Shown here in pieces: positions 1,665 through 51,546 of a DNA stretch of 64,000 nucleotides. The stretch comes from a bacterium. GTDB lineage: Bacteria; Patescibacteriota; Patescibacteriia; SBBB01. A program made the translations under genes and the position numbers. The notes under the pieces are model-generated. The model ran no database searches. It had not been told where the DNA came from and was given only the letters and a program-made list of their open reading frames with translations. The stretch is from the NCBI GenBank assembly GCA_005239895.1, contig SBBB01000022.1:4098-68097 (forward strand), written 5' to 3'. Each line of letters begins with the position of its first letter. Position 1 is the first letter of the stretch.

Positions 1665-1762
1665 AAAAAAATATTACACTGCGTGTGACTTATACTAAAT
1701 ATTATAGAAGAGTTGACTTCCTGGGTCAATTTTAATTAGTTAAATCAACTGTATCTACCAAA

Positions 1763-1858
1763 ATAACTAAAAAACACTAAAAAAATACATATTACAAAAG
1801 GCCTTCATTGCTTATGAAAGGCCCAGTCCGTCACTCATCTATATTTACGAATGACGGA
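1763..1858 (-). terminator. Conserved 96-nt 3' element, copy 1 (two tandem hairpins and a U-run on the minus strand), downstream of LuxR gene 1
   Basis: Read on the minus strand: hairpin CCGTCATTC..GAATGACGG, then GGGCCTTTCAT-AAGCA-ATGAAGGCC followed by TTTTGTAATATGTATTTTTTT. Identical to 3713-3809. Confidence 0.6.
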
Positions 1859-1888
1859 CAAAAAAATAAAAACTATTATTACTCGTCG

Positions 1889-2293
1889 TTACTTGAGTAA
1901 CATGGCTAGTACCTCTAACCTAGATGTTGCGTCTGTCTTTCTCCTGATATGACGCATGTGCTCTCTAACGGTTTCGGTTGTCACATTAAGCATCTCGCCA
2001 ATATGCTCATCTTGCAAACCCTTAACAAGATACTTCACTATATCTGCTTCGCGATTAGTAAATACACCCATCTCAGGTTTGATCAAAACCAAATCCCCCA
2101 AAGAGATGTGCAAAGCATCCAGGTATCTTAAAATAATAAGAGCAACTTTGGTTTTTACAGTCTTTGCATCAAACCCTGCACCATCGCTGTTTTTCTTGAC
2201 ACCCATAACATGCTGAGCCAGGTCAAGAAGCTCCATAACATCCGTTGTTAAATCTGAAATTATTAAGTCGGGTTTACTGTTATTTGGTTTCAT
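1889..2293 (-). CDS. LuxR/GerE-family HTH transcriptional regulator (small, C-terminal HTH)
   Basis: 134 aa; C-terminal ...NREADIVKYLVKGLQDEHIGEMLNVTTETVREHMRHIRRKTDATSRLEVLAMLL typical GerE/LuxR HTH. Confidence 0.65.
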   Translation of the reverse strand: MKPNNSKPDLIISDLTTDVMELLDLAQHVMGVKKNSDGAGFDAKTVKTKVALIILRYLDALHISLGDLVLIKPEMGVFTNREADIVKYLVKGLQDEHIGEMLNVTTETVREHMRHIRRKTDATSRLEVLAMLLK

Positions 2294-2400
2294 CTGAACT
2301 GTAACACATTGTATTTACACTCCTTTCTTATCGGCTACGATTGTTATACATTGTATTGCAAGCCTTAATTCTAAGCCCAAAATATAAACTATATCATACA

Positions 2401-2429
2401 AGAGTAGCGTATTAACACTGTTTTGTCAA
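2401..2429 (-). promoter_or_regulatory. Putative sigma70-like promoter of LuxR gene 1 (TTGACA-17-TACTCT on minus strand)
   Basis: Minus-strand TTGACA at 2424-2429 and TACTCT at 2401-2406. The same architecture and flanking motif AGTAGCGTAT..TTTTGTCAA recur upstream of LuxR gene 2. Confidence 0.4.
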
Positions 2430-2496
2430 CAAAACTAATTAATAAAAATTTTTAAAAAGAAAATAAATATATCAATAATTATTTTGAAAAAATACT

Positions 2497-2530
2497 GGCA
2501 CACGCAACTAAACTTTCTTTGCGTGTGCCA
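2497..2530 (-). terminator. GC-rich hairpin GGCACACGC-N15-GCGTGTGCC followed by U-rich tract on minus strand (terminator of ORF 2559-3437)
   Basis: Perfect 9-bp inverted repeat. A paralogous hairpin at 4583-4616 carries the compensatory pair A/T to G/C. Confidence 0.5.
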
Positions 2531-2558
2531 TATCGTTAAAGCATATGAATAATATTTA

Positions 2559-3437
2559 TCACTGCTTGACATGATCTCTTTTTTGCATTTCTGACCATGG
2601 TATTTTTCCTGCATTATTATACTTCTCGCGCATTGACCGCGCATATAAACTAGTTAGCAGGTTATGGACGCGATTACTCCCCTTGCGCCACAGCAAGCTT
2701 AACTTGGTCGCAAGGTTTTGTGTATTGCGAGTGGACTGAATAATATATGGAGACTTATGTGTATTTTTTGGACGAACTGATCCACTGGATATTGATACTA
2801 CTTTTTTAACAGGTTGAGGTGTTACGACTTTAAATCTCTGAACCTCCATAAATGTCAAAACTATTAAACGTGTGCAAAAATTGACATAACCATGCTCCTC
2901 AATGAACCCTAATTTAAACAAAATTGAAAAATGGGAATTAATACTTGAGATTTTATGATCGTCCTTTTCAGATAACCATACCAACATCATAAAAGCATTA
3001 ATATCACTACACTTCAGATCGTCAATTGTTCGCACAGCCTGAATAGTTCTATCCATAACGTCCATCTGAGACTGACTTGTTTGACTTGAAATTTTATAAT
3101 CCTGTTTCTGTGCCTTGATTGGACTATAAAAATCTAATATTATAGCCAAAATAATACGCACGGGAAAATCAACGCGACCACGGTTCTCTTCACTGTTACC
3201 TTGACCTACTCCAGCATCTATTGTGATAAGCCCTAAATCATCTAAAATTAAAAACGCTGAGTGGTCAGACAGAATAAACACATCATTATATGACAGTGTT
3301 TTCAACATCTGAAAAGCCGCAATCATGTTTTGGTCTGTGCTCTTTCTTAGTTTATTGATCGCGTTGAGTTTATCACTAATATAATCCGCTATGCTCTTTG
3401 CACCTTGCTTTTGATCCATGTCTCTCCTTTCAATCAA
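2559..3437 (-). CDS. hypothetical protein (island-specific, higher GC)
   Basis: 292 aa ORF with no recognised motif; codon composition is GC-richer than the core genome. Confidence 0.45.
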   Translation of the reverse strand: MIERRDMDQKQGAKSIADYISDKLNAINKLRKSTDQNMIAAFQMLKTLSYNDVFILSDHSAFLILDDLGLITIDAGVGQGNSEENRGRVDFPVRIILAIILDFYSPIKAQKQDYKISSQTSQSQMDVMDRTIQAVRTIDDLKCSDINAFMMLVWLSEKDDHKISSINSHFSILFKLGFIEEHGYVNFCTRLIVLTFMEVQRFKVVTPQPVKKVVSISSGSVRPKNTHKSPYIIQSTRNTQNLATKLSLLWRKGSNRVHNLLTSLYARSMREKYNNAGKIPWSEMQKRDHVKQ

Positions 3438-3607
3438 AAAGTGTTAGAAAACTAATTGTAAGCGTCGGTGTCGGTAATCACAAAATATCACACAATACAC
3501 AAAAATGTCAATTACCAACACTACCAACGCAAGACTAATTTATATGTAAAATTGCATGAAAACTTAACAAATCTACACATAAATGATATTGATAATGACT
3601 GTGCATA

Positions 3608-3745
3608 ATGGTTTTACACGTAACACGTTTTTACGGTTCATGTACGGATAAACAATTGGTATTGTTTTCTAGAAACTTTATTGGCATTCAGCACTTAGAT
3701 AAACCGCTACAAATAACTAAAAAACACTAAAAAAAATACATATTA
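3608..3745 (+). pseudogene. Truncated paralog of ORF 4771-5196 (39-aa remnant MVLHVTRFYGSCTDKQLVLFSRNFIGIQHLDK...)
   Basis: DNA and peptide homology to the N-terminal region of the 141-aa ORF (FYGSCT..QL..FSR..IGIQH.DK). The reading frame terminates inside the 96-nt repeat element. Confidence 0.4.
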
Positions 3746-3809
3746 CAAAAGGCCTTCATTGCTTATGAAAGGCCCAGTCCGTCACTCATCTATATTTACG
3801 AATGACGGA
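3713..3809 (-). terminator. Conserved 96-nt 3' element, copy 2, downstream of LuxR gene 2
   Basis: Identical to 1763-1858 except for one extra A. Confidence 0.6.
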
Positions 3810-3823
3810 TAAAAATTTATAAT

Positions 3824-4282
3824 TCATAATTTCAACATTCTCGCTATCAGTTGTAACCTTGAGGTTACTCCTGTCTTACCGCGAATATGGCGCATATGAT
3901 CTCTTATGGTTTCAACACTAATCTCCAACGCAGTTCCAATGTTTTTATCCGAGAAACCGTTTAGTAAGTACCACACAACATGTTTCTCGCGAGGAGTAAA
4001 TCGAACATCTTCTAATCTAGCTAAAACTAGATCTCTTAATGAAATGTTGAGTATTTGTATGCACTTTAACAAAGAAACAACCACCTCTTTCTTGTGCTCT
4101 TCGATCTGCTGCTTTAATCTAGGGCTCTGTTGCTGAAGTTTTGCAATCTTTTTTTCAAGCTCAGCAATCTGTTTCTTGACTATTATAATACCTGTAATGC
4201 GTTGCCGACTTCTATGATTTAGTCGACTTCTATGGTTTGCTTTTTTAATCAAGGTTGCTTTTTTAATCAAGGCTAATTTCAT
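3824..4282 (-). CDS. LuxR/GerE-family HTH transcriptional regulator (paralog 2, coiled-coil N-terminus)
   Basis: C-terminal HTH ...PREKHVVWYLLNGFSDKNIGTALEISVETIRDHMRHIRGKTGVTSRLQLIARML. Start chosen at MKLALIKK, which follows GGAGG (ATGAGGAGGAATATCATG). The ORF track extends to 4327. Confidence 0.6.
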   Translation of the reverse strand: MKLALIKKATLIKKANHRSRLNHRSRQRITGIIIVKKQIAELEKKIAKLQQQSPRLKQQIEEHKKEVVVSLLKCIQILNISLRDLVLARLEDVRFTPREKHVVWYLLNGFSDKNIGTALEISVETIRDHMRHIRGKTGVTSRLQLIARMLKL

Positions 4283-4361
4283 GATATTCCTCCTCATTTG
4301 CCATCTTACGGTTGCTGTACCTTGCATTACCTGAATTCTAAAAAATATGAACCTTGCTATA

Positions 4362-4390
4362 AAAGTAGCGTATAAGTCTTATTTTGTCAA
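4362..4390 (-). promoter_or_regulatory. Putative promoter of LuxR gene 2 (TTGACA-17-TACTTT on minus strand)
   Basis: Minus-strand TTGACA at 4385-4390; conserved with the 2401-2429 region. Confidence 0.4.
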
Positions 4391-4426
4391 TAGTGAAAAA
4401 GTTTATAAAGTTAAAATTTTAGATCG

Positions 4427-4466
4427 TGACACCCTATCACGATCGTGACGAAGTGTCACGGCAATA
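4427..4466. promoter_or_regulatory. Nested palindrome CGTGACAC-N-TCACGATCGTGA-N-GTGTCACG (operator-like site)
   Basis: 12-bp perfect palindrome TCACGATCGTGA embedded in an 8-bp inverted repeat. It lies in the divergent region between LuxR gene 2 and the 141-aa ORF. Confidence 0.35.
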
Positions 4467-4582
4467 ATATTTAAATCACATTTACTTAATTAAATTTTTC
4501 AAAAATAAATAAAACGAAGACACTTGGTGCGATCGCATCAAATATCACATAATAATATAAAATAAGACCTAAATAAATACGG

Positions 4583-4616
4583 GCACGCGCTATAAAACTT
4601 TCTTTGCGCGTGCCAT
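4583..4616 (-). terminator. GC-rich hairpin GGCACGCGC-N15-GCGCGTGCC (paralog of 2497-2530)
   Basis: Perfect 9-bp inverted repeat, with a conserved loop (aaactttcttt) and flanks. Confidence 0.45.
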
Positions 4617-4770
4617 CAAATTAGAATGGATAATAAACCTCATTGAAAGAGCAATATTACTACCGAAAAATATAAATTTGACAAATCTGCAGCCAAATGA
4701 TATTTATAATAGCTGTACGCAATGGTTTTATGCGTAACTAATGAAACATCAAACCATATAGGAGGATCAA

Positions 4771-5196
4771 ATGGGACAAACAACCCAAACAAAACTGGTA
4801 ACATATTTTTACGGATCATGCACACTTGAACAATTGGCATCATTTTCTAGAGATGTTATTGGCATTCAGCATTCAGACAAACTGCCAAAAAACAATATAG
4901 TAATGCCGATATCTGTAATGCGCCAAAGATTTCACCGGGTTTATTGCGAGCAGGGCCAAATAATTGAACCGCCCCGTGTAATGGGTTTTCGCAATATATT
5001 GGTTGGAATATACGAACACACAAAAATCTCTAAAGCCAAATGGAAATCAAAAAGAAAAAATATCTTAATAGTACAACGAACTAACGACAACGAATTTATT
5101 CTAAAACTCGAGCAAGTAAATCGTAATAGTAATTACCATTACATACTTACCAAGCTTGACATCAAGCTCACACACCTCGAGCTAGACCATAAATAG
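4771..5196 (+). CDS. hypothetical protein (141 aa), full-length member of the family truncated at 3608-3745
   Basis: Strong SD AGGAGG 5 nt upstream of the ATG. A paralogous fragment with mostly synonymous differences supports it being a real coding gene. Confidence 0.5.
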   Translation: MGQTTQTKLVTYFYGSCTLEQLASFSRDVIGIQHSDKLPKNNIVMPISVMRQRFHRVYCEQGQIIEPPRVMGFRNILVGIYEHTKISKAKWKSKRKNILIVQRTNDNEFILKLEQVNRNSNYHYILTKLDIKLTHLELDHK

Positions 5197-5323
5197 TTAA
5201 ACTGCTACACAAAAAACACGCAAGGAGGGAATGTCCGATTACGTTCCCTTCTTGCACAAACAAATATTTAAATAAGCTATAAAAATTTTAAATATTCGTA
5301 CTTTAATTTTTTAAAAAAACAAG

Positions 5324-5354
5324 GTTCGCTATCCCATCTTACGACAGCGAACCT
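5324..5354 (-). terminator. Rho-independent terminator of the PurM-like gene (GGTTCGCT-N15-AGCGAACC plus TTGTTTTTTT on minus)
   Basis: 8-bp perfect stem followed by a U-run on the minus strand. Confidence 0.6.
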
Positions 5355-5396: not shown

Positions 5397-6578
5397 TCAT
5401 CTAACTCTAAGTGTGGAGCCTAAATACTCTAAACCTTTCGGTTTAATGATAACTGATTTGCTATTACTCTGTTCAATATGTCCAGCGCGAAACGCTACGA
5501 GCTTATTTGTAGTAGCGATTCTGATAACATGATCTACATCAGCTTCCGAAACATAGAGCGCAAAACCAGCGCCCATATTCCAGTTACCGTACGCCTCCCT
5601 ATCATCCACTGGACCATACCTCTGCATAACATCAAATATCAATTGTTGTTTTGGTAAACGATCGATAATGTAGGCAAATGGTTGTGTTGCTCGCATAAGC
5701 TTGCGCCATCCATGACCCGTAATATTTACCGCGTAATGAATGTCCACTCCGCTACTAATACAGTCTTCAACCAGCCCAACATAAATATGAGTTGGATCAA
5801 GCAATGTTTCTCCGTACGTTCGCCCGTCATCGAGTTTGGTCAAATAACCATCAGATAAAACACGAGGCGGAAACCAATTAGGTATTAAAAAGAAATTTAC
5901 CACTGCTTTCCAGAACCTGTGCTTTCTTTCACCAATCTCTCGCGCCATTGTGAGTCCATTAGCATGAATACCCGAACTCTCAATCATAACAATCGCATCA
6001 CCATGTTTAATGTTTGCTGGATTGATAACATTCTTCTTGGATTTAACTCTACCTACAGCAGCGCCGGCAAGTATAACTGTTTTTGGCATCACCATATCTT
6101 TCACTGTTTGAGTTTCGCCACAACCCCATGTGCAACGCGCTAAATTACAAGCGTTTTTAGTACCTCGACTGAAGTCTCTATAACGCTTCTCATCTGTAAA
6201 CCAACTTGATTTACCTGCTGCGACAAATATCATAAATACATGCGGAAATACGCCAGACGCAACCAGGTCATTTACAACCATAGCCACATTACACTGCGCG
6301 ATATGGTCGTAATAAGACTTGCCAGTGAGACGATACATAGCATCGGCTACTAGATTCTTTGTGCCCAATCCTTCTATAGTACCTCCCCAATAACAATCAT
6401 CCACTTCCATAAGATAAGCGCTCTCACCGCGACTCCACCTGGCTTCTTTAAAATCTCCATTACTGAAGTGATAGATGTTGTTTGAGGTGTCACAACCATC
6501 TATTTGCGATATTCTCTTGGTTAGATCCATCGCATCATAATTTACTCCAACTCCATCATAAGTCATTTTGCCTGCCAT
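5397..6578 (-). CDS. AIR synthase (PurM)-family protein
   Basis: PurM-like motifs GLGTKNLVA, VAMVVNDLVASG, GETLLDPTHIYV, NITGHG, WNMGAGFALYV; carries an N-terminal extension. Confidence 0.65.
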   Translation of the reverse strand: MAGKMTYDGVGVNYDAMDLTKRISQIDGCDTSNNIYHFSNGDFKEARWSRGESAYLMEVDDCYWGGTIEGLGTKNLVADAMYRLTGKSYYDHIAQCNVAMVVNDLVASGVFPHVFMIFVAAGKSSWFTDEKRYRDFSRGTKNACNLARCTWGCGETQTVKDMVMPKTVILAGAAVGRVKSKKNVINPANIKHGDAIVMIESSGIHANGLTMAREIGERKHRFWKAVVNFFLIPNWFPPRVLSDGYLTKLDDGRTYGETLLDPTHIYVGLVEDCISSGVDIHYAVNITGHGWRKLMRATQPFAYIIDRLPKQQLIFDVMQRYGPVDDREAYGNWNMGAGFALYVSEADVDHVIRIATTNKLVAFRAGHIEQSNSKSVIIKPKGLEYLGSTLRVR

Positions 6579-7734: not shown

Positions 7735-7821
7735 ATAATTAATAAATTATTTTAAACTAATTGATAATTTAATAATTTTATTATATCTATTAGTTCTAAA
7801 GAACACAATACTTTTTTTAAG

Positions 7822-8640
7822 CTACCATGCTTCCAGCAATTTAGATTGCCAAATATATATCACTTTACCTAAACCAAATAAATTATAATTTAAAACCGTG
7901 GAACTGCCATAAACTATATAAACTCCACCCAAAAAAATTAAAATTAATCCTGAAAATAATCTTATATTTTTGAAAACGCGAATATTATAATTCGGAAAAA
8001 AGAAAAGCAGTATTAAAAATGGAGTGAATACTCCCAAAACATATAATAGAATCAAAAGCGCTGAATAAATATAATTATCAGAATTAGAAGCCATAAATAA
8101 AATACTAAACAAAACCGGCCCCACGCAAGGATTAAAACCTGCCGCAAAAAATAACCCAAACCATACATTCAGGGTTGGATGATTTTTTAAAAAATTAGAC
8201 CAAGTAACCGGCAATTTAAATCGATCTAATAATAAAATAATTCCCAGCAACAATATCGCGACCCCCGAAAACAATACAATGTAGCTTTTATTAATAATTA
8301 GTAATTGACCAAAAAAAGTAACACTAAAACCTAGTAGTAAAAAAATTATAAAAAATCCTCCAGCGAAAAATAATATATTTTTTAAACGTTCCTTTTTGCT
8401 TTGGGTTTTTAAAGATATTCCTGTCACTGCCAAACCAATGGGAAGCATGCAAGGACTAAAAAACGACAACAAACCGCCCAAAAATGCCACCAACAAAGAA
8501 ATATTGCGTATATTGGCAACACTGTTCTTTACAGCTGAATCTAAAAGCTCTTCACTTACAGGCGGTACAAAATAATAAACACCTATAAATAGTATTACAA
8601 CTAACAAAAAACTTATAATGTTAATAACTCTGGTCAACAT
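7822..8640 (-). CDS. ccdA: CcdA/DsbD-family thiol-disulfide transmembrane electron transporter
   Basis: Polytopic protein; conserved cysteines in TM helices (FSPCMLP, FNPCVGP). Confidence 0.65.
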   Translation of the reverse strand: MLTRVINIISFLLVVILFIGVYYFVPPVSEELLDSAVKNSVANIRNISLLVAFLGGLLSFFSPCMLPIGLAVTGISLKTQSKKERLKNILFFAGGFFIIFLLLGFSVTFFGQLLIINKSYIVLFSGVAILLLGIILLLDRFKLPVTWSNFLKNHPTLNVWFGLFFAAGFNPCVGPVLFSILFMASNSDNYIYSALLILLYVLGVFTPFLILLFFFPNYNIRVFKNIRLFSGLILIFLGGVYIVYGSSTVLNYNLFGLGKVIYIWQSKLLEAW

Positions 8641-9511: not shown

Positions 9512-9516
9512 ATAAA

Positions 9517-9552
9517 TGTAAGAAACTGGCGCGATCGCGATGGTTTCTTACA
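9517..9552 (+). terminator. Hairpin TGTAAGAAAC-N16-GTTTCTTACA immediately after the stop of 8714-9511
   Basis: 10-bp perfect stem; the loop contains CGCGATCGCG; followed by TTTG. Confidence 0.4.
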
Positions 9553-9579
9553 TTTGTACTATACAATACAGCAATAATT

Positions 9580-9617
9580 AATGTTTAGGAGTTGAACTCC
9601 TAAACATTGGTTTTTTA
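9580..9617 (+). terminator. Rho-independent terminator AATGTTTAGGAGTT-GAACTCCTAAACATT plus GGTTTTTT (member of a palindrome family)
   Basis: 14-bp perfect stem plus a T-run. A near-identical hairpin lies at 51464-51491. Confidence 0.65.
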
Positions 9618-9685
9618 AAAATAAATCCATATATTTCAACATTTATGAAGTATTATGACTTGAATTTAGTATAAAATACCAGTAC

Positions 9686-9817
9686 TTGACCCTGTTAGAA
9701 ATCGCGATCGCTACAAAATATACGCAAAGACCTGTATACTCAACAAAGGAGTCGTTATAAAGAAAATTTAACTCTGTTTAATACCTAGATCGCGACCTGT
9801 TTCTAACGGGGTTGACC
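9686..9817. mobile_element. MITE-like repeat, copy E1 (TTGACC-CTGTTAGAAATCGCGATCGC ... GATCGCGACCTGTTTCTAACGGGG-TTGACC)
   Basis: ~25-bp imperfect terminal inverted repeats with direct TTGAC at both ends; related copies at 20535, 35483, 51517 and 57059. Confidence 0.55.
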
Positions 9818-20662: not shown

Positions 20663-20700
20663 ATAATTGCCTATCATGTTTGGTGATCGGATCACCAAAC
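20663..20700 (+). terminator. Hairpin ATGTTTGGTGATC-GGATCACCAAACAT plus TGGTTTTTT
   Basis: 13-bp perfect stem plus a T-run; a related palindrome lies at 58007-58036. Confidence 0.55.
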
Positions 20701-20742
20701 ATTGGTTTTTTAAAACTCTTGTATAAAACTATTTTAACAACC

Positions 20743-35482: not shown

Positions 35483-35611
35483 GTTGACCCCGTTAGAAGC
35501 CGCGATCGCCACAAAAAAATATATTATATATTAAAAATAAACATAGTAATTTAATAAATACTTAACTCAACTTAATATTCAAATCGCGATCTGCTTCTAA
35601 CGGGGTTGACA
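35483..35611. mobile_element. MITE-like repeat, copy E2 (GTTGACCCCGTTAGAAGCCGCGATCGCC ... AAATCGCGATCTGCTTCTAACGGGGTTGACA)
   Basis: ~25-bp terminal inverted repeats with an AT-rich interior; same family as 9686-9817. Confidence 0.6.
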
Positions 35612-35795: not shown

Positions 35796-36025
35796 TGACT
35801 AAAATGACCAGCATCTCATTTTTCAACATGTCAAGCAGAGCGTATCACATGACGTTTAACAGGTGGCTCAGAGAGCAACATGCCCATGGTCAGGGCATGC
35901 CAACAACTAACACGCAAACACAGCAATTATCAACCCCAGTGAAAGAAACCAGGCAGTTCATTCTTTTCAAAAAAGATGGCACGGTTGTTTCACACGTCGC
36001 GCCAACCGTAAGCGCAACCGCTTAA
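35796..36025 (+). CDS. small hypothetical protein (76 aa) in a GC-rich patch
   Basis: AGGAGG lies 8 nt upstream of ATGACTAAAATG. Composition is GC-richer than the genome. The ORF track gives a longer 35651 start. Confidence 0.35.
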
Positions 36026-36039
36026 CCACCCCGCATCAA

Positions 36040-36112
36040 CAAAAAAGCTGCGCCTTACCGCCTAAGGCGCACGCAGACAAAATCAAAGGGTCAAAGCTAA
36101 CTACTTTGACCC
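36040..36112 (-). terminator. Two hairpins (GCGCCTTA-N5-TAAGGCGC and AAGGGTCAAAG-N8-CTTTGACCCTT) terminating ORF 36123-38648
   Basis: Perfect stems; the first is followed by a U-run on the minus strand. Confidence 0.5.
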
Positions 36113-36122
36113 TTCCTGCCCT

Positions 36123-40306: not shown

Positions 40307-41194
40307 ATGCTCATCACTTTGAAGCCCTATCAAGTTAAATTATTCGTCTTGAGTGTCTTGCTATTACTCGTAGGGTTTATATGGCAGTTTACAAGCTCAT
40401 CAAATACTAAAAATTTAAAAGTGATTTTCTTGAATGTTGAACAAGGTGATGCCACCCTTATCCAAACTCCTAAAGAAAAAACTATTTTAATAGATGGCGG
40501 GCCAAATGCTGCGATCTTAGAAAAACTTGGGCAATATTTACCGTTTCATCAAAAGAAAATTGATTTAATAATCTTAACTCACCCCCATTCTGATCATGTA
40601 ACTGGCTTAATATCTGTGTTACAAAACTACCAAATAAATTTAATTTTAATGAATGGGGTTAATCATACCACGCCTGAATATATCACTTTCTTAAAATTAA
40701 TTAAAAATAAAAAAATCCCGGTTAATATTGTAGAAAACGCATCTTTTATTGATCTAGAAGACAATATTAGAATGGAAATTCTATATCCTGATCGTAATTT
40801 GGCTAATTTAGACGTAAAAGACTTGAACGATGGCTCTATAGTAACCTACTTAATTGCAAAAAATATTAAATTTTTATTTATGGGCGATGCTGGCTTTGGC
40901 GTGGAAAACAGACTGATGGCATCAAACCTACTTTTACAAACCAATGTATTAAAAATTGGGCACCACGGATCTAGAGAATCTTCGTCCTCTGAATTTTTAA
41001 ATTATGTTCGTCCTGAATTCGCCATTATTTCATCGGGAGCTAACAATCTATTCGGGCATCCCAGTAAAGAACTGTTAAAACGCTTAAACAATCAAAATAT
41101 AAAAACCTATCGTACTGACAAACATGGAGATATTATATTCACTACCAATGGTATAAATTTACAACTTCAACTTGGAAGTCCGACTTCCAAGTAA
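40307..41194 (+). CDS. ComEC/Rec2-related MBL-fold hydrolase (TM anchor plus beta-lactamase domain)
   Basis: HPHSDH...GDAG...GHHGS metal-binding pattern of the ComEC C-terminal domain. Confidence 0.6.
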   Translation: MLITLKPYQVKLFVLSVLLLLVGFIWQFTSSSNTKNLKVIFLNVEQGDATLIQTPKEKTILIDGGPNAAILEKLGQYLPFHQKKIDLIILTHPHSDHVTGLISVLQNYQINLILMNGVNHTTPEYITFLKLIKNKKIPVNIVENASFIDLEDNIRMEILYPDRNLANLDVKDLNDGSIVTYLIAKNIKFLFMGDAGFGVENRLMASNLLLQTNVLKIGHHGSRESSSSEFLNYVRPEFAIISSGANNLFGHPSKELLKRLNNQNIKTYRTDKHGDIIFTTNGINLQLQLGSPTSK

Positions 41195-41197
41195 CTT
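41168..41197. repeat. 30-nt palindromic repeat CAACTTGGAAGTCCGACTTCCAAGTAACTT (copy 1, overlaps the ComEC-like stop)
   Basis: Identical copy at 43869-43898; degenerate copy at 48798-48820. Confidence 0.7.
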
Positions 41198-41299
41198 ACA
41201 AGTAATATTGTGTGGCTTGCAAATAAAAGCAAAAAAGATATACTATAAATTATAGTTAAAAGTAGAAAGCTAAAAGCTAGCTTTATAAGCTTAAATCAT

Positions 41300-43859: not shown

Positions 43860-43868
43860 ACGATTTGT

Positions 43869-43898
43869 CAACTTGGAAGTCCGACTTCCAAGTAACTT
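43869..43898. repeat. 30-nt palindromic repeat copy 2 (between the convergent rpsT and holA)
   Basis: Identical to 41168-41197; 10-bp stem ACTTGGAAGT/ACTTCCAAGT. Confidence 0.7.
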
Positions 43899-43903
43899 CC
43901 ACG

Positions 43904-51306: not shown

Positions 51307-51463
51307 ATATTTTGGTAAATTAAATATATTAATAGTATATATTATACACTAATCTGGTAATGAAGACAATATTAATTGTCAATAAATCAGTATTTAGTTA
51401 TCACCAGGTTATATTACTTGATAGTTACTTAGTAGTTTCGCTACTAAATTGTTTCAAAAAAAC

Positions 51464-51491
51464 TAATGTTTAGGAGTTCAACTCCTAAACA
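51464..51491 (+). terminator. Hairpin TGTTTAGGAGTT-CAACTCCTAAACA (paralog of the 9580 terminator)
   Basis: 12-bp stem followed by GCCTTTTTA. Confidence 0.5.
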
Positions 51492-51516
51492 GCCTTTTTA
51501 ATCAAATGTAGTATTC

Positions 51517-51546
51517 AAATCTGGATTTACTTCTAACGGGGTTGAC
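51517..51546. mobile_element. Solo MITE terminus, copy E3 (TTCTAACGGGGTTGACAA)
   Basis: Matches the right ends of E1 and E2; as at 9580-9817 it lies downstream of the palindromic hairpin. Confidence 0.45.

Follow-up and report, generated by a model that had tools for sequence, protein, structure and literature searches.

The almost identical blocks that follow the two diverged LuxR-family genes, LuxR1 and LuxR2, most likely reflect local sequence homogenisation, in which one tail was copied over the other, and not a new regulatory or mobile element. Each block is probably an ordinary 3′UTR hairpin plus intrinsic terminator, and the two copies would have been homogenised by a recent non-reciprocal copy event. 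The blocks lie within the window, the whole 64-kb stretch of DNA analysed here (Table 1).

Anatomy of the block and its gene context

The two copies of the block, of 98 nt and 99 nt, contain no substitutions. Their sole difference is in a homopolymer, which is A7 (1779-1785) in copy 1 and A8 in copy 2. The near-identity with one extra A described in the initial annotation was thus confirmed, with a slightly longer tract that starts at 1761 and 3711. The 59-nt core of the block has two exact matches in the window, with none expected from 100 shuffles. The identity includes the loops, the spacer and the A/U-rich tail of ~35 nt, and thus extends over the non-structural parts as well.

Folding of the block on the - strand, which is the strand of the LuxR genes, gave an energy of -34.4 kcal/mol (z = -4.0) and showed two hairpins. 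The first (hp1) is UCCGUCAUUCGU...AUGAGUGACGGA, with 12 pairs including G.U and an energy of -16.5 kcal/mol, and has no U-tract. The second (hp2) is GGCCUUUCAU-AAGCA-AUGAAGGCC, a GC-clamped hairpin of 9-10 bp with a one-base bulge (-10.8 kcal/mol), followed by UUUUG. Both hairpins had been noticed before, but the second arm of hp1 is GAGUGACGG rather than GAAUGACGG, so that the stem contains a G.U wobble that becomes a C-A mismatch on the + strand. Accordingly, hp1 is weaker on the + strand (-9.6 kcal/mol), and the U-run lies 3′ of hp2 on the - strand only. The folding bears out the reading of a terminator with an extra upstream hairpin on the LuxR strand.

The position of hp2 is that of an intrinsic terminator, a G+C-rich stem-loop on the transcribed strand, 65 nt past the stop codon of LuxR1 and 49 nt past that of LuxR2. 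The stem is followed by UUUUGUAAU, a short U-run with four consecutive U and five U in eight positions. Owing to the bulge in its stem, hp2 was missed by a simple consensus terminator scan, which accepts only ungapped stems and loops of 3-8 nt. The same layout of a hairpin followed by a terminator is found after unrelated genes at 9512-9625 (+) and 36010-36122 (-), and this 3′ design is thus used by at least two unrelated genes within the window. Other short hairpin repeats also recur at unrelated loci of this genome.

The LuxR transcript from the - strand would therefore carry hp1, a 3-nt spacer, and then hp2 with the short U-run. Together, the two hairpins would end the mRNA. They probably also shield its 3′ end from exonucleases, and they would insulate the downstream gene, which is the HD gene in the case of copy 1 and ORF292 in that of copy 2 and which has a separate promoter. 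This arrangement resembles known intrinsic terminators with a 3′UTR stabiliser hairpin, in which a GC-clamped stem-loop with a U-run lies on the gene strand 50-70 nt past the stop codon, a second hairpin of greater stability and with no U-tract immediately precedes it, and the next gene has its own promoter. It differs from them in the short U-run (4 U) and the bulged stem, and the identity of the two copies is not a property of terminators.

In searches of the locus against Pfam, PHROGs, NCBIfam and PADLOC, the LuxR HTH was the only domain recognised, and the NCBIfam matches of LuxR1 are likewise restricted to it; nothing credible was obtained for ORF292 and ORF141. The structure predicted for ORF292 by AlphaFold from its sequence alone was of too low confidence to be used (pLDDT 35).

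Table 1. Coordinates of the two block copies and of the surrounding features in the window
Feature	Coordinates	Strand	Remarks
Block copy 1, LuxR1 3′UTR	1761..1858	-	hp1 1827-1858, 3-nt spacer, hp2 1800-1823, U-run (complement of 1796-1799), U-rich tail to 1761
Block copy 2, LuxR2 3′UTR	3711..3809	-	hp1 3778-3809, hp2 3751-3774, U-run (complement of 3747-3750), tail to 3711, one extra A in A-run
LuxR1, 134 aa, C-terminal GerE/LuxR HTH	1889..2293	-	Pfam GerE E = 4.7e-11; stop codon 30 nt before hp1
LuxR2, 152 aa, GerE/LuxR HTH	3824..4282	-	Coiled-coil-like N-terminus; stop codon 14 nt before hp1; 39% identical to LuxR1
LuxR1 promoter block	2397..2429	-	-35 TTGACA at 2429-2424; homologous to 4358-4390 (76%)
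LuxR2 promoter block	4358..4390	-	-35 TTGACA at 4390-4385
ORF292 intrinsic terminator, left unit	2487..2531	-	Hairpin + U6; 84% identical to right-unit copy, compensated stem change
ORF292-type terminator hairpin, right unit	4572..4616	-	Kept although the right unit has no ORF292
ORF292, 286-292 aa	2559..3437	-	Left unit only; orphan, single distant homologue P0123
ORF141 pseudo-copy (promoter + first ~40 codons)	3560..3713	+	78-79% identical to 4674-4891; ends at left edge of block copy 2
Intact ORF141 promoter + gene, 141 aa	4674..5196	+	No known family; duplicated unit stops inside, ~4891
HD-domain gene promoter-like site	1701..1729	-	TTGACC-17-TATAAT; outside and downstream of block copy 1

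The tandem duplication and its unchanged patch

The initial annotation treated the block as an element in its own right. The sequence is real, but it is not free-standing and forms the left end of an older tandem duplication of ~2 kb. The duplicated unit comprises the block, LuxR, its promoter, the ORF292 terminator, ORF292 (where retained) and the 5′ part of ORF141. The two units are collinear, with five homologous segments that keep their order and orientation from one unit to the other. The left edge of the block coincides with the duplication junction and the end of homology, and the ORF141 pseudo-copy, which also lacks the 64 nt bearing the RBS and the ATG, is truncated there. The left flanks (1700-1760 and 3650-3710) are unrelated and have only the microhomology CTAC/AAATAAC in common. 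The left boundary of the block is the duplication junction and not a functional boundary. The point at which the ORF141 fragment meets the block also seemed similar to the 3′ flank of the intact ORF141, but this similarity was disregarded because its score of 24 is within the range of shuffled sequences (20.4 ± 3.1).

Comparison of the two units showed that the block differs sharply from the rest of the duplication. Right of 1858 and 3809, the identity falls abruptly to about 64%. The LuxR genes have ~60-70% nucleotide identity in their best-aligned HTH half, and the proteins are 39% identical, in agreement with the earlier remark that the adjacent genes are diverged. The block is 99% identical, in comparison with 76%, 84%, 78% and 79% for the other non-coding segments of the duplication. 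At the 20% background divergence of the same duplication, the probability of 98 unchanged bases is P = 3e-10. The ORF292 terminator hairpin provides an internal control. It has accumulated seven changes in 45 nt between the units, including a compensated stem pair, with further covariation in the relative L032, and this divergence is the product expected of selection on a terminator over such a time span. At the rate of the ORF292 terminator itself, the probability of no change in the 98 nt of the block is P = 6e-8.

The recent gene conversion proposed in the initial annotation is supported by these values. As expected for gene conversion, the near-identical tract (98/98) has sharp borders and lies in an older, more diverged homologous region. 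However, homology flanks the tract on the right only, with none on the left. Since a classical conversion event depends on flanking homology at either end, an illegitimate or microhomology-based, template-switch or one-ended event is assumed. Concerted evolution or gene conversion of tandem paralogs such as the duplicated tuf genes and rRNA operons similarly leaves a short tract of near-100% identity with an abrupt step in an older, diverged duplication. Unlike those cases, the tract here is non-coding, only ~98 nt long, and located at the very edge of the homologous segment, so one of its ends would have been resolved without homology, e.g. by microhomology or template switching.

The history of the locus may be envisaged as follows. 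An ancient tandem duplication of a ~2-kb segment, comprising the block, LuxR, the promoter, the ORF292 terminator, ORF292 and the 5′ part of ORF141, was followed by divergence of the copies by ~20% at unconstrained sites. ORF292 was lost from the right copy, and the ORF141 fragment decayed in the left copy. One copy of the block would then have been overwritten recently in a short event without reciprocal exchange, by gene conversion or by template switching during replication. The right end of this event probably lies within the homologous LuxR 3′ region, and its left end at the microhomology (CTAC/AAATAAC) of the ORF141-fragment junction.

Constraint, recombination and assembly as alternative explanations

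Selection could instead have been the main force keeping the block identical, as a cis or trans module that co-regulates both paralogs through a 3′UTR hairpin, a 3′UTR-derived sRNA or a DNA operator. This explanation is unlikely, including its version in which the 10-bp arms and 12-bp spacer of hp1 form a site bound by a regulator dimer, for instance of the LuxR proteins. In its favour, the terminator is preceded by hp1, a very stable hairpin that is dispensable for termination and whose G.U pairs suit a role as RNA of the gene strand. A common binding site is also conceivable, as LuxR1 and LuxR2 are best conserved in their HTH halves. However, the identity also spans the loops, the spacer and the low-complexity tail and stops at the duplication junction, whereas 16% of positions, with compensation, have changed in the equally old and truly constrained ORF292 terminator. 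The hp1 half-site was not found elsewhere in the 64 kb, including the LuxR promoters.

The special regulatory RNA suggested by the initial annotation fared no better. Searches with Rfam 15 found only two tRNAs across the window at gathering scores and no match to the block at E ≤ 5. The predicted RNA duplexes of the block with local start regions (-12 to -19 kcal/mol) do not exceed the background of -13.7 ± 3.2 kcal/mol, and the hairpin-then-terminator design recurs at unrelated genes. Like the 3′UTR-derived sRNAs CpxQ, DapZ and SroC, the hairpin together with the mRNA terminator could be freed as a stable 3′ fragment, but no conserved seed, no target complementarity above the background in local start regions and no Hfq or ProQ context were found for the block.

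The locus of one relative also speaks against a constrained module. The nearest relative with a syntenic HD/ORF292 locus (L032) has 84% nucleotide identity in the HD gene and has kept an ORF292 homologue and its terminator, but its locus contains neither a LuxR gene nor the block. Word-index searches with LuxR1 and ORF292 returned no homologues except themselves, and no relatives of LuxR, ORF292 or ORF141 were found in viral contigs. The PurM-like neighbours are at most 65% identical, and three of their loci (L028, L030 and L031) showed no synteny and no LuxR module. No close relatives carrying the locus were found. As judged from the comparison of the two units, constraint is probably not the cause of the identity of the block.

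A role of the blocks as att-like sites or recombination substrates is distinctly unlikely. They would then be direct repeats around a 1.85-kb cassette, made up of LuxR1, ORF292 and the fragment of ORF141, that entered the locus by recombination at the block or could be excised or amplified through it, and the block would belong to a dispersed mobile terminator or repeat family. A discrete segment is indeed bracketed by two identical 98-nt direct repeats, and RecA can mediate deletion between repeats with 98 bp of identity. The genome also uses other short hairpin repeats at more than one unrelated locus, and the assembly graph of the independent Logan contigs is fitted equally well by a one-block chromosome with a 1951-bp circle. 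However, no recombinase, transposase or Rep-like gene was found in or near the unit, and the bracketed segment is collinearly homologous to its neighbour, as for an in-situ duplication. The right end of the second unit has no third copy of the block, and the ORF292 homologue of L032 is chromosomal beside the HD gene, which argues against a free circle.

The mobility raised in the initial annotation also found no support in the searches for further copies. Within the 64-kb window, the 59-mer, both half-sites and a sensitive blastn search with the block recovered the two known copies alone and no diverged copies, and the genome, metagenome and viral contigs and the phage and plasmid records gave nothing real. 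A 20-mer across both hairpins had no match in viral contigs and one in genome contigs, in a Terracidiphilus contig of 61% GC without extension, which is attributed to chance. The hp1 arms with a free loop had 24 matches in metagenome contigs, none of which extends past the pattern and most of which are in high-GC contigs. Blastn of 1700-5300 against phage and plasmid records returned nothing.

The block shares with REP/BIME, Correia and RUP/BOX repeats and MITEs a hairpin-forming intergenic sequence that is identical at more than one place, in a genome that re-uses other short hairpins. In contrast to these families, which have many dispersed copies by unrelated genes, it occurs as two copies in the 64 kb, both in one tandem duplication, and was absent elsewhere from the collections searched. 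It has no terminal inverted repeats or target-site duplication; its ends, AAATAACT... and ...GAATGACGGA, are not inverted repeats, and no short direct repeats flank it. Integron cassette arrays likewise have near-identical structured repeats of ~100 nt after dissimilar ORFs. The block, however, consists of two separate hairpins and not of one long imperfect palindrome with R′′/L′′-L′/R′ cores, and no attC cores of the RYYYAAC...GTTRRRY type were found in it. Neither an integrase nor an attI site was found, and no ORF in the unit or next to it encodes a recognised recombinase. Unlike integron cassettes, the units here are homologous over their whole length and have their own promoters.

An assembly artefact, with the identity produced by consensus or bubble collapsing or the tandem order by strain variants joined through a shared repeat, is highly improbable, even though the source is a metagenome-assembled contig, every short-read contig breaks in the repeat, and the order depends on pairing information. 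In the independent assembly used for comparison (Logan contigs L033, L002 and L003 from SRR6943130), all three contigs end 30 nt inside the 80-nt exact repeat. Ends at exactly k-1 bases within the repeat match the k=31 graph of a true two-copy repeat. Contig L002 contains the unique junction at which the ORF141 fragment adjoins the block, and it also bears LuxR1 and the other repeat end, so a single molecule carries two copies or is a circle. The one-base difference in the A-run survived between the copies, and the linkage of ORF292 and HD is also present in L032. Bubble-popping by the assembler could have removed a few real differences between the copies.

Significance of the probably homogenised tail

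The probably homogenised tail matters little beyond this locus. On a small scale, the locus clearly exemplifies mosaic divergence in a tandem duplication, in which a 100% identical patch adjoins neutral sequence that has diverged by 20% and genes whose proteins are 39% identical. It illustrates that the sharp boundary of an apparent element may be a duplication junction instead of a functional edge. As direct repeats with 98 bp of identity, the two copies also render the LuxR1-ORF292 segment susceptible to deletion. It is very unlikely that the block serves as a shared 3′UTR module that co-regulates the LuxR paralogs, or as a recombination substrate through which the LuxR1-ORF292 cassette is reversibly lost or amplified. 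If true, these readings would make co-regulation of paralogs, or the switching of a regulator on and off by recombination, accessible to study in an uncultured lineage with reduced genomes. The recurrence of the hairpin-then-terminator arrangement adds an observation on 3′-end architecture in this Patescibacteria genome.

The edge of an older tandem duplication

The repeated block of ~98 nt beside the two minus-strand LuxR/GerE paralogs forms one end of a bigger and older tandem duplication, whose five recurring blocks keep their order and orientation in both units. Both paralogs, LuxR1 and LuxR2, match Pfam GerE (E ~1e-11), and their N-terminal halves are scarcely alignable. The right unit has lost the orphan ORF292 and kept its terminator. 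In the left copy of ORF141, a plus-strand ORF of the right unit, 64 nt with the RBS and ATG are deleted between GTAAC repeats. This loss (3560-3730 vs. 4674-4891) brings an upstream ATG (3608) into frame, opening a reading frame of 40 codons that extends into block copy 2. From the left copy's weakened ORF141-type promoter, plus-strand transcription would cross the block in antisense to LuxR2. The left ORF141 copy ends at 3710-3713, exactly at the start of block copy 2, and the junctions carry microhomology (CTAC(CA)AAATAAC at 1755-1767, CTACAAATAAC at 3707-3717 and CAAAAAAC at 4886-4893), indicating that the left boundary of the block is a rearrangement junction rather than a functional edge.

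Features of the duplicated units and of comparable loci (window positions; positions in L033, L002 and L003 are contig limits)
Feature	Left unit or single position	Right unit	Strand	Identity or remark
98-nt block	1761-1858	3711-3809		99%
LuxR gene	1889-2293 (LuxR1, 134 aa)	3824-4282 (LuxR2, 152 aa)	-	39% (protein, 114 residues); small HTH proteins, right of block copies 1 and 2
LuxR promoter	2397-2429	4358-4390		76%
Terminator hairpin	2487-2531	4572-4616		84%
ORF141 promoter	3560-3624	4674-4738		78%
ORF141, first ~40 codons	3620-3713	4798-4891		79%
ORF292	2559-3437		-	terminator is the 84% hairpin
HD promoter-like site	1729-1701		-	TTGACC-17-TATAAT
ORF292 promoter-like site	3511		-	TTGACA-16/18
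Hairpin-then-terminator	9512-9625		+	-43 kcal/mol; hairpin 1 without U-run, hairpin 2 then U6
Hairpin-then-terminator	36010-36122		-	-46.6 kcal/mol; hairpin 1 without U-run, hairpin 2 then U6
Logan contig L033	begins 1808
Logan contig L002	1829-3759
Logan contig L003	begins 3780

Several further features accompany these genes. ORF141 has no terminator of its own and converges on two tandem minus-strand terminators (5219-5250 and 5322-5352, each with a U-run) located downstream of the PurM-like gene (5397-6578). LuxR2 carries a perfect 18-nt tandem duplication in its 5' end (4237-4272, TTGCTTTTTTAATCAAGG twice), which encodes a LIKKA(T/N) motif twice. On the gene strand, the LuxR1 5' UTR holds two direct copies of ACAYATTGTATT (2303-2315 and 2345-2357) with the palindrome ATACAATGTAT within, a candidate autoregulatory operator; the motif count (4 vs. 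1.4 expected) is not significant by itself, and LuxR2 has no conserved copy of the motif upstream. In the right unit, an extra ~110-180 nt (4391-4570) separate the LuxR2 promoter from the terminator hairpin. The left unit lacks this stretch, which is rich in CGTGAC/GTCACG palindromes (4425-4460), includes GCGATCGC at 4529 and could represent either a small insertion or a cluster of operators.

RNA anatomy of the block

Folding confirmed the two hairpins followed by a U-run that the initial annotation had placed on the gene strand. On the minus strand the block reads as a U-rich leader, hairpin 1 (UCCGUCAUUCGU-(8-nt loop)-AUGAGUGACGGA; 12 pairs, -16.5 kcal/mol), a CUG spacer, hairpin 2 (GGCCUUUCAU-AAGCA-AUGAAGGCC; one bulge, -10.8 kcal/mol), UUUUG and a ~35-nt U-rich tail; for the 138-nt region as a whole the folding energy is -34.4 kcal/mol (z = -4.0). 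On the plus strand hairpin 1 reaches only -9.6 kcal/mol, because its G.U pairs turn into C-A mismatches, and a U-run follows neither hairpin. Thus, the sensible orientation is that of a LuxR 3' UTR, in which hairpin 2 would act as an intrinsic terminator and hairpin 1 is an extra hairpin. The U-run of hairpin 2 is short, and a consensus terminator scan did not list hairpin 2, since the scan accepts no bulges and only short loops. Downstream of each copy on the LuxR strand, the following gene (the HD-domain gene or ORF292) has a promoter-like site of its own. The same hairpin-then-terminator layout also follows unrelated genes in the window.

Other repeats were observed in the window. Near-identical bidirectional terminator-like hairpins (TGTTTAGGAGTTSAACTCCTAAACA with a U-run) occur at unrelated loci (9581-9620, 20676-20715 and 51449-51505), the stem being fully compensated in one copy (TTTGGTGATCGGATCACCAAA). 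A second hairpin repeat, AACTTGGAAGTCCGACTTCCAAGT, is present at 41167-41200 and 43868-43901 (97% identical) and as two tandem variants (9608-9665) upstream of the HD gene of L032, a relative's contig; its appearance suggests a REP-like repeat spread across the lineage. Four copies of the HIP1-like palindrome GCGATCGC (4529, 9531, 9704 and 35502; 0.09 expected), apparently intergenic, lie in the window, and another at ~9703 in L032. One 59-nt upstream motif, with AATCGCGAyCTGyTTCTAACGGGGTTGAC as its last bases, recurs in three intergenic regions (9758-9816, 35552-35610 and 51488-51546) and could be a promoter or UP-type element shared by them.

Origin of the identity between copies

The near-identity first noted beside the diverged LuxR genes holds: the copies (98 and 99 nt) show no substitutions and differ solely in a run of 7 A vs. 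8 A. The identity extends over both loops, the spacer and the low-complexity tail, and falls to ~64% in the flank just right of 1858/3809. The background estimated from the pseudogene and promoter blocks is 20% (41 of 204 nt substituted), at which 98 unchanged positions have P = 3e-10. The ORF292 terminator, an internal control of equal age, differs at 7 of 45 nt, with a compensated A-U to G-C stem pair among the differences; at its rate P = 6e-8. These comparisons indicate that the common ancestor of the block copies is far more recent than that of their surroundings, supporting recent copying between the paralog tails and arguing against functional constraint, another cause initially proposed. 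The ORF292 terminator hairpin is conserved in both units and in the relative (2487-2531, 4572-4616 and L032 7654-7700), its stem carrying compensated changes, further ones of which appear in L032 (GGCACACGC/GCGTGTGCC, GGCACGCGC/GCGCGTGCC and GGCGCGCACAG/CTGTGTGCGCC).

A constrained regulatory RNA or operator, which would likewise keep the copies alike, is unlikely: the block has no Rfam match, the hairpin 1 half-site occurs nowhere else in the 64 kb, LuxR promoters included, and the block RNA pairs with local start regions no better than background.

No homology exists left of the block, which makes classical two-sided conversion awkward. A one-ended copy event fits both borders, and we infer such a mechanism. 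A replication template switch, for example, could start within the homologous LuxR 3' region, copy the tail of the other paralog and rejoin at the CTAC/AAATAAC microhomology, which would also account for the truncated ORF141 fragment.

Mobility, relatives and consequences

The 59-nt core of the block occurs exactly twice in the window (none expected by chance). That the copies are att-like or recombination-substrate repeats, or members of a repeat family, is distinctly improbable. No recombinase, transposase or Rep-like protein lies in or beside the duplicated unit, and the block lacks both terminal inverted repeats and cores of the attC type. The mobility suggested by the initial annotation was not supported, as the window holds no further or diverged copy and scans of species-representative genomes, JGI metagenomes, viral contigs, and phage and plasmid records gave no match above chance. 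An assembly artefact is very improbable, since three short-read contigs of the independent Logan assembly of SRR6943130 stop exactly 30 nt inside an 80-nt exact repeat, the pattern of a k=31 graph at a genuine two-copy repeat.

The host is a Patescibacteria/Parcubacteria-type bacterium (GC ~32%) whose housekeeping genes have best non-self matches of ~64% identity; the loci of three such relatives showed no synteny. ORF292 belongs to no Pfam, PHROG, NCBIfam or PADLOC family, and its single-sequence structure model was unusable. An exhaustive HMMER search with ORF292 found the only informative relative, L032 (GCA_964395945.1), carrying P0123 (6763-7650; 36% identity), the one distant homologue that 1.8 billion representatives yielded, with a homologous terminator, 1.3 kb from an HD-domain (YfbR-like) gene with 84% DNA identity to that of the window. 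This shared neighbourhood supports a chromosomal tandem arrangement over a free 1.95-kb circle. L032 has neither a LuxR gene nor the block; thus, the LuxR/block module is not conserved. P0123 ends in a C-terminal GERRE x4 repeat. Between it and a 118-aa Cys-rich membrane ORF lies a GC-rich, apparently structured non-coding stretch of ~0.5 kb (7770-8260) in the AT-rich genome, with no Rfam match at gathering scores.

On balance, the block is probably an ordinary LuxR 3' UTR hairpin plus intrinsic terminator, located where an old tandem duplication ends and homogenised by recent short non-reciprocal copying. With two identical 98-bp direct repeats around it, the LuxR1-ORF292 segment is prone to RecA-mediated loss.
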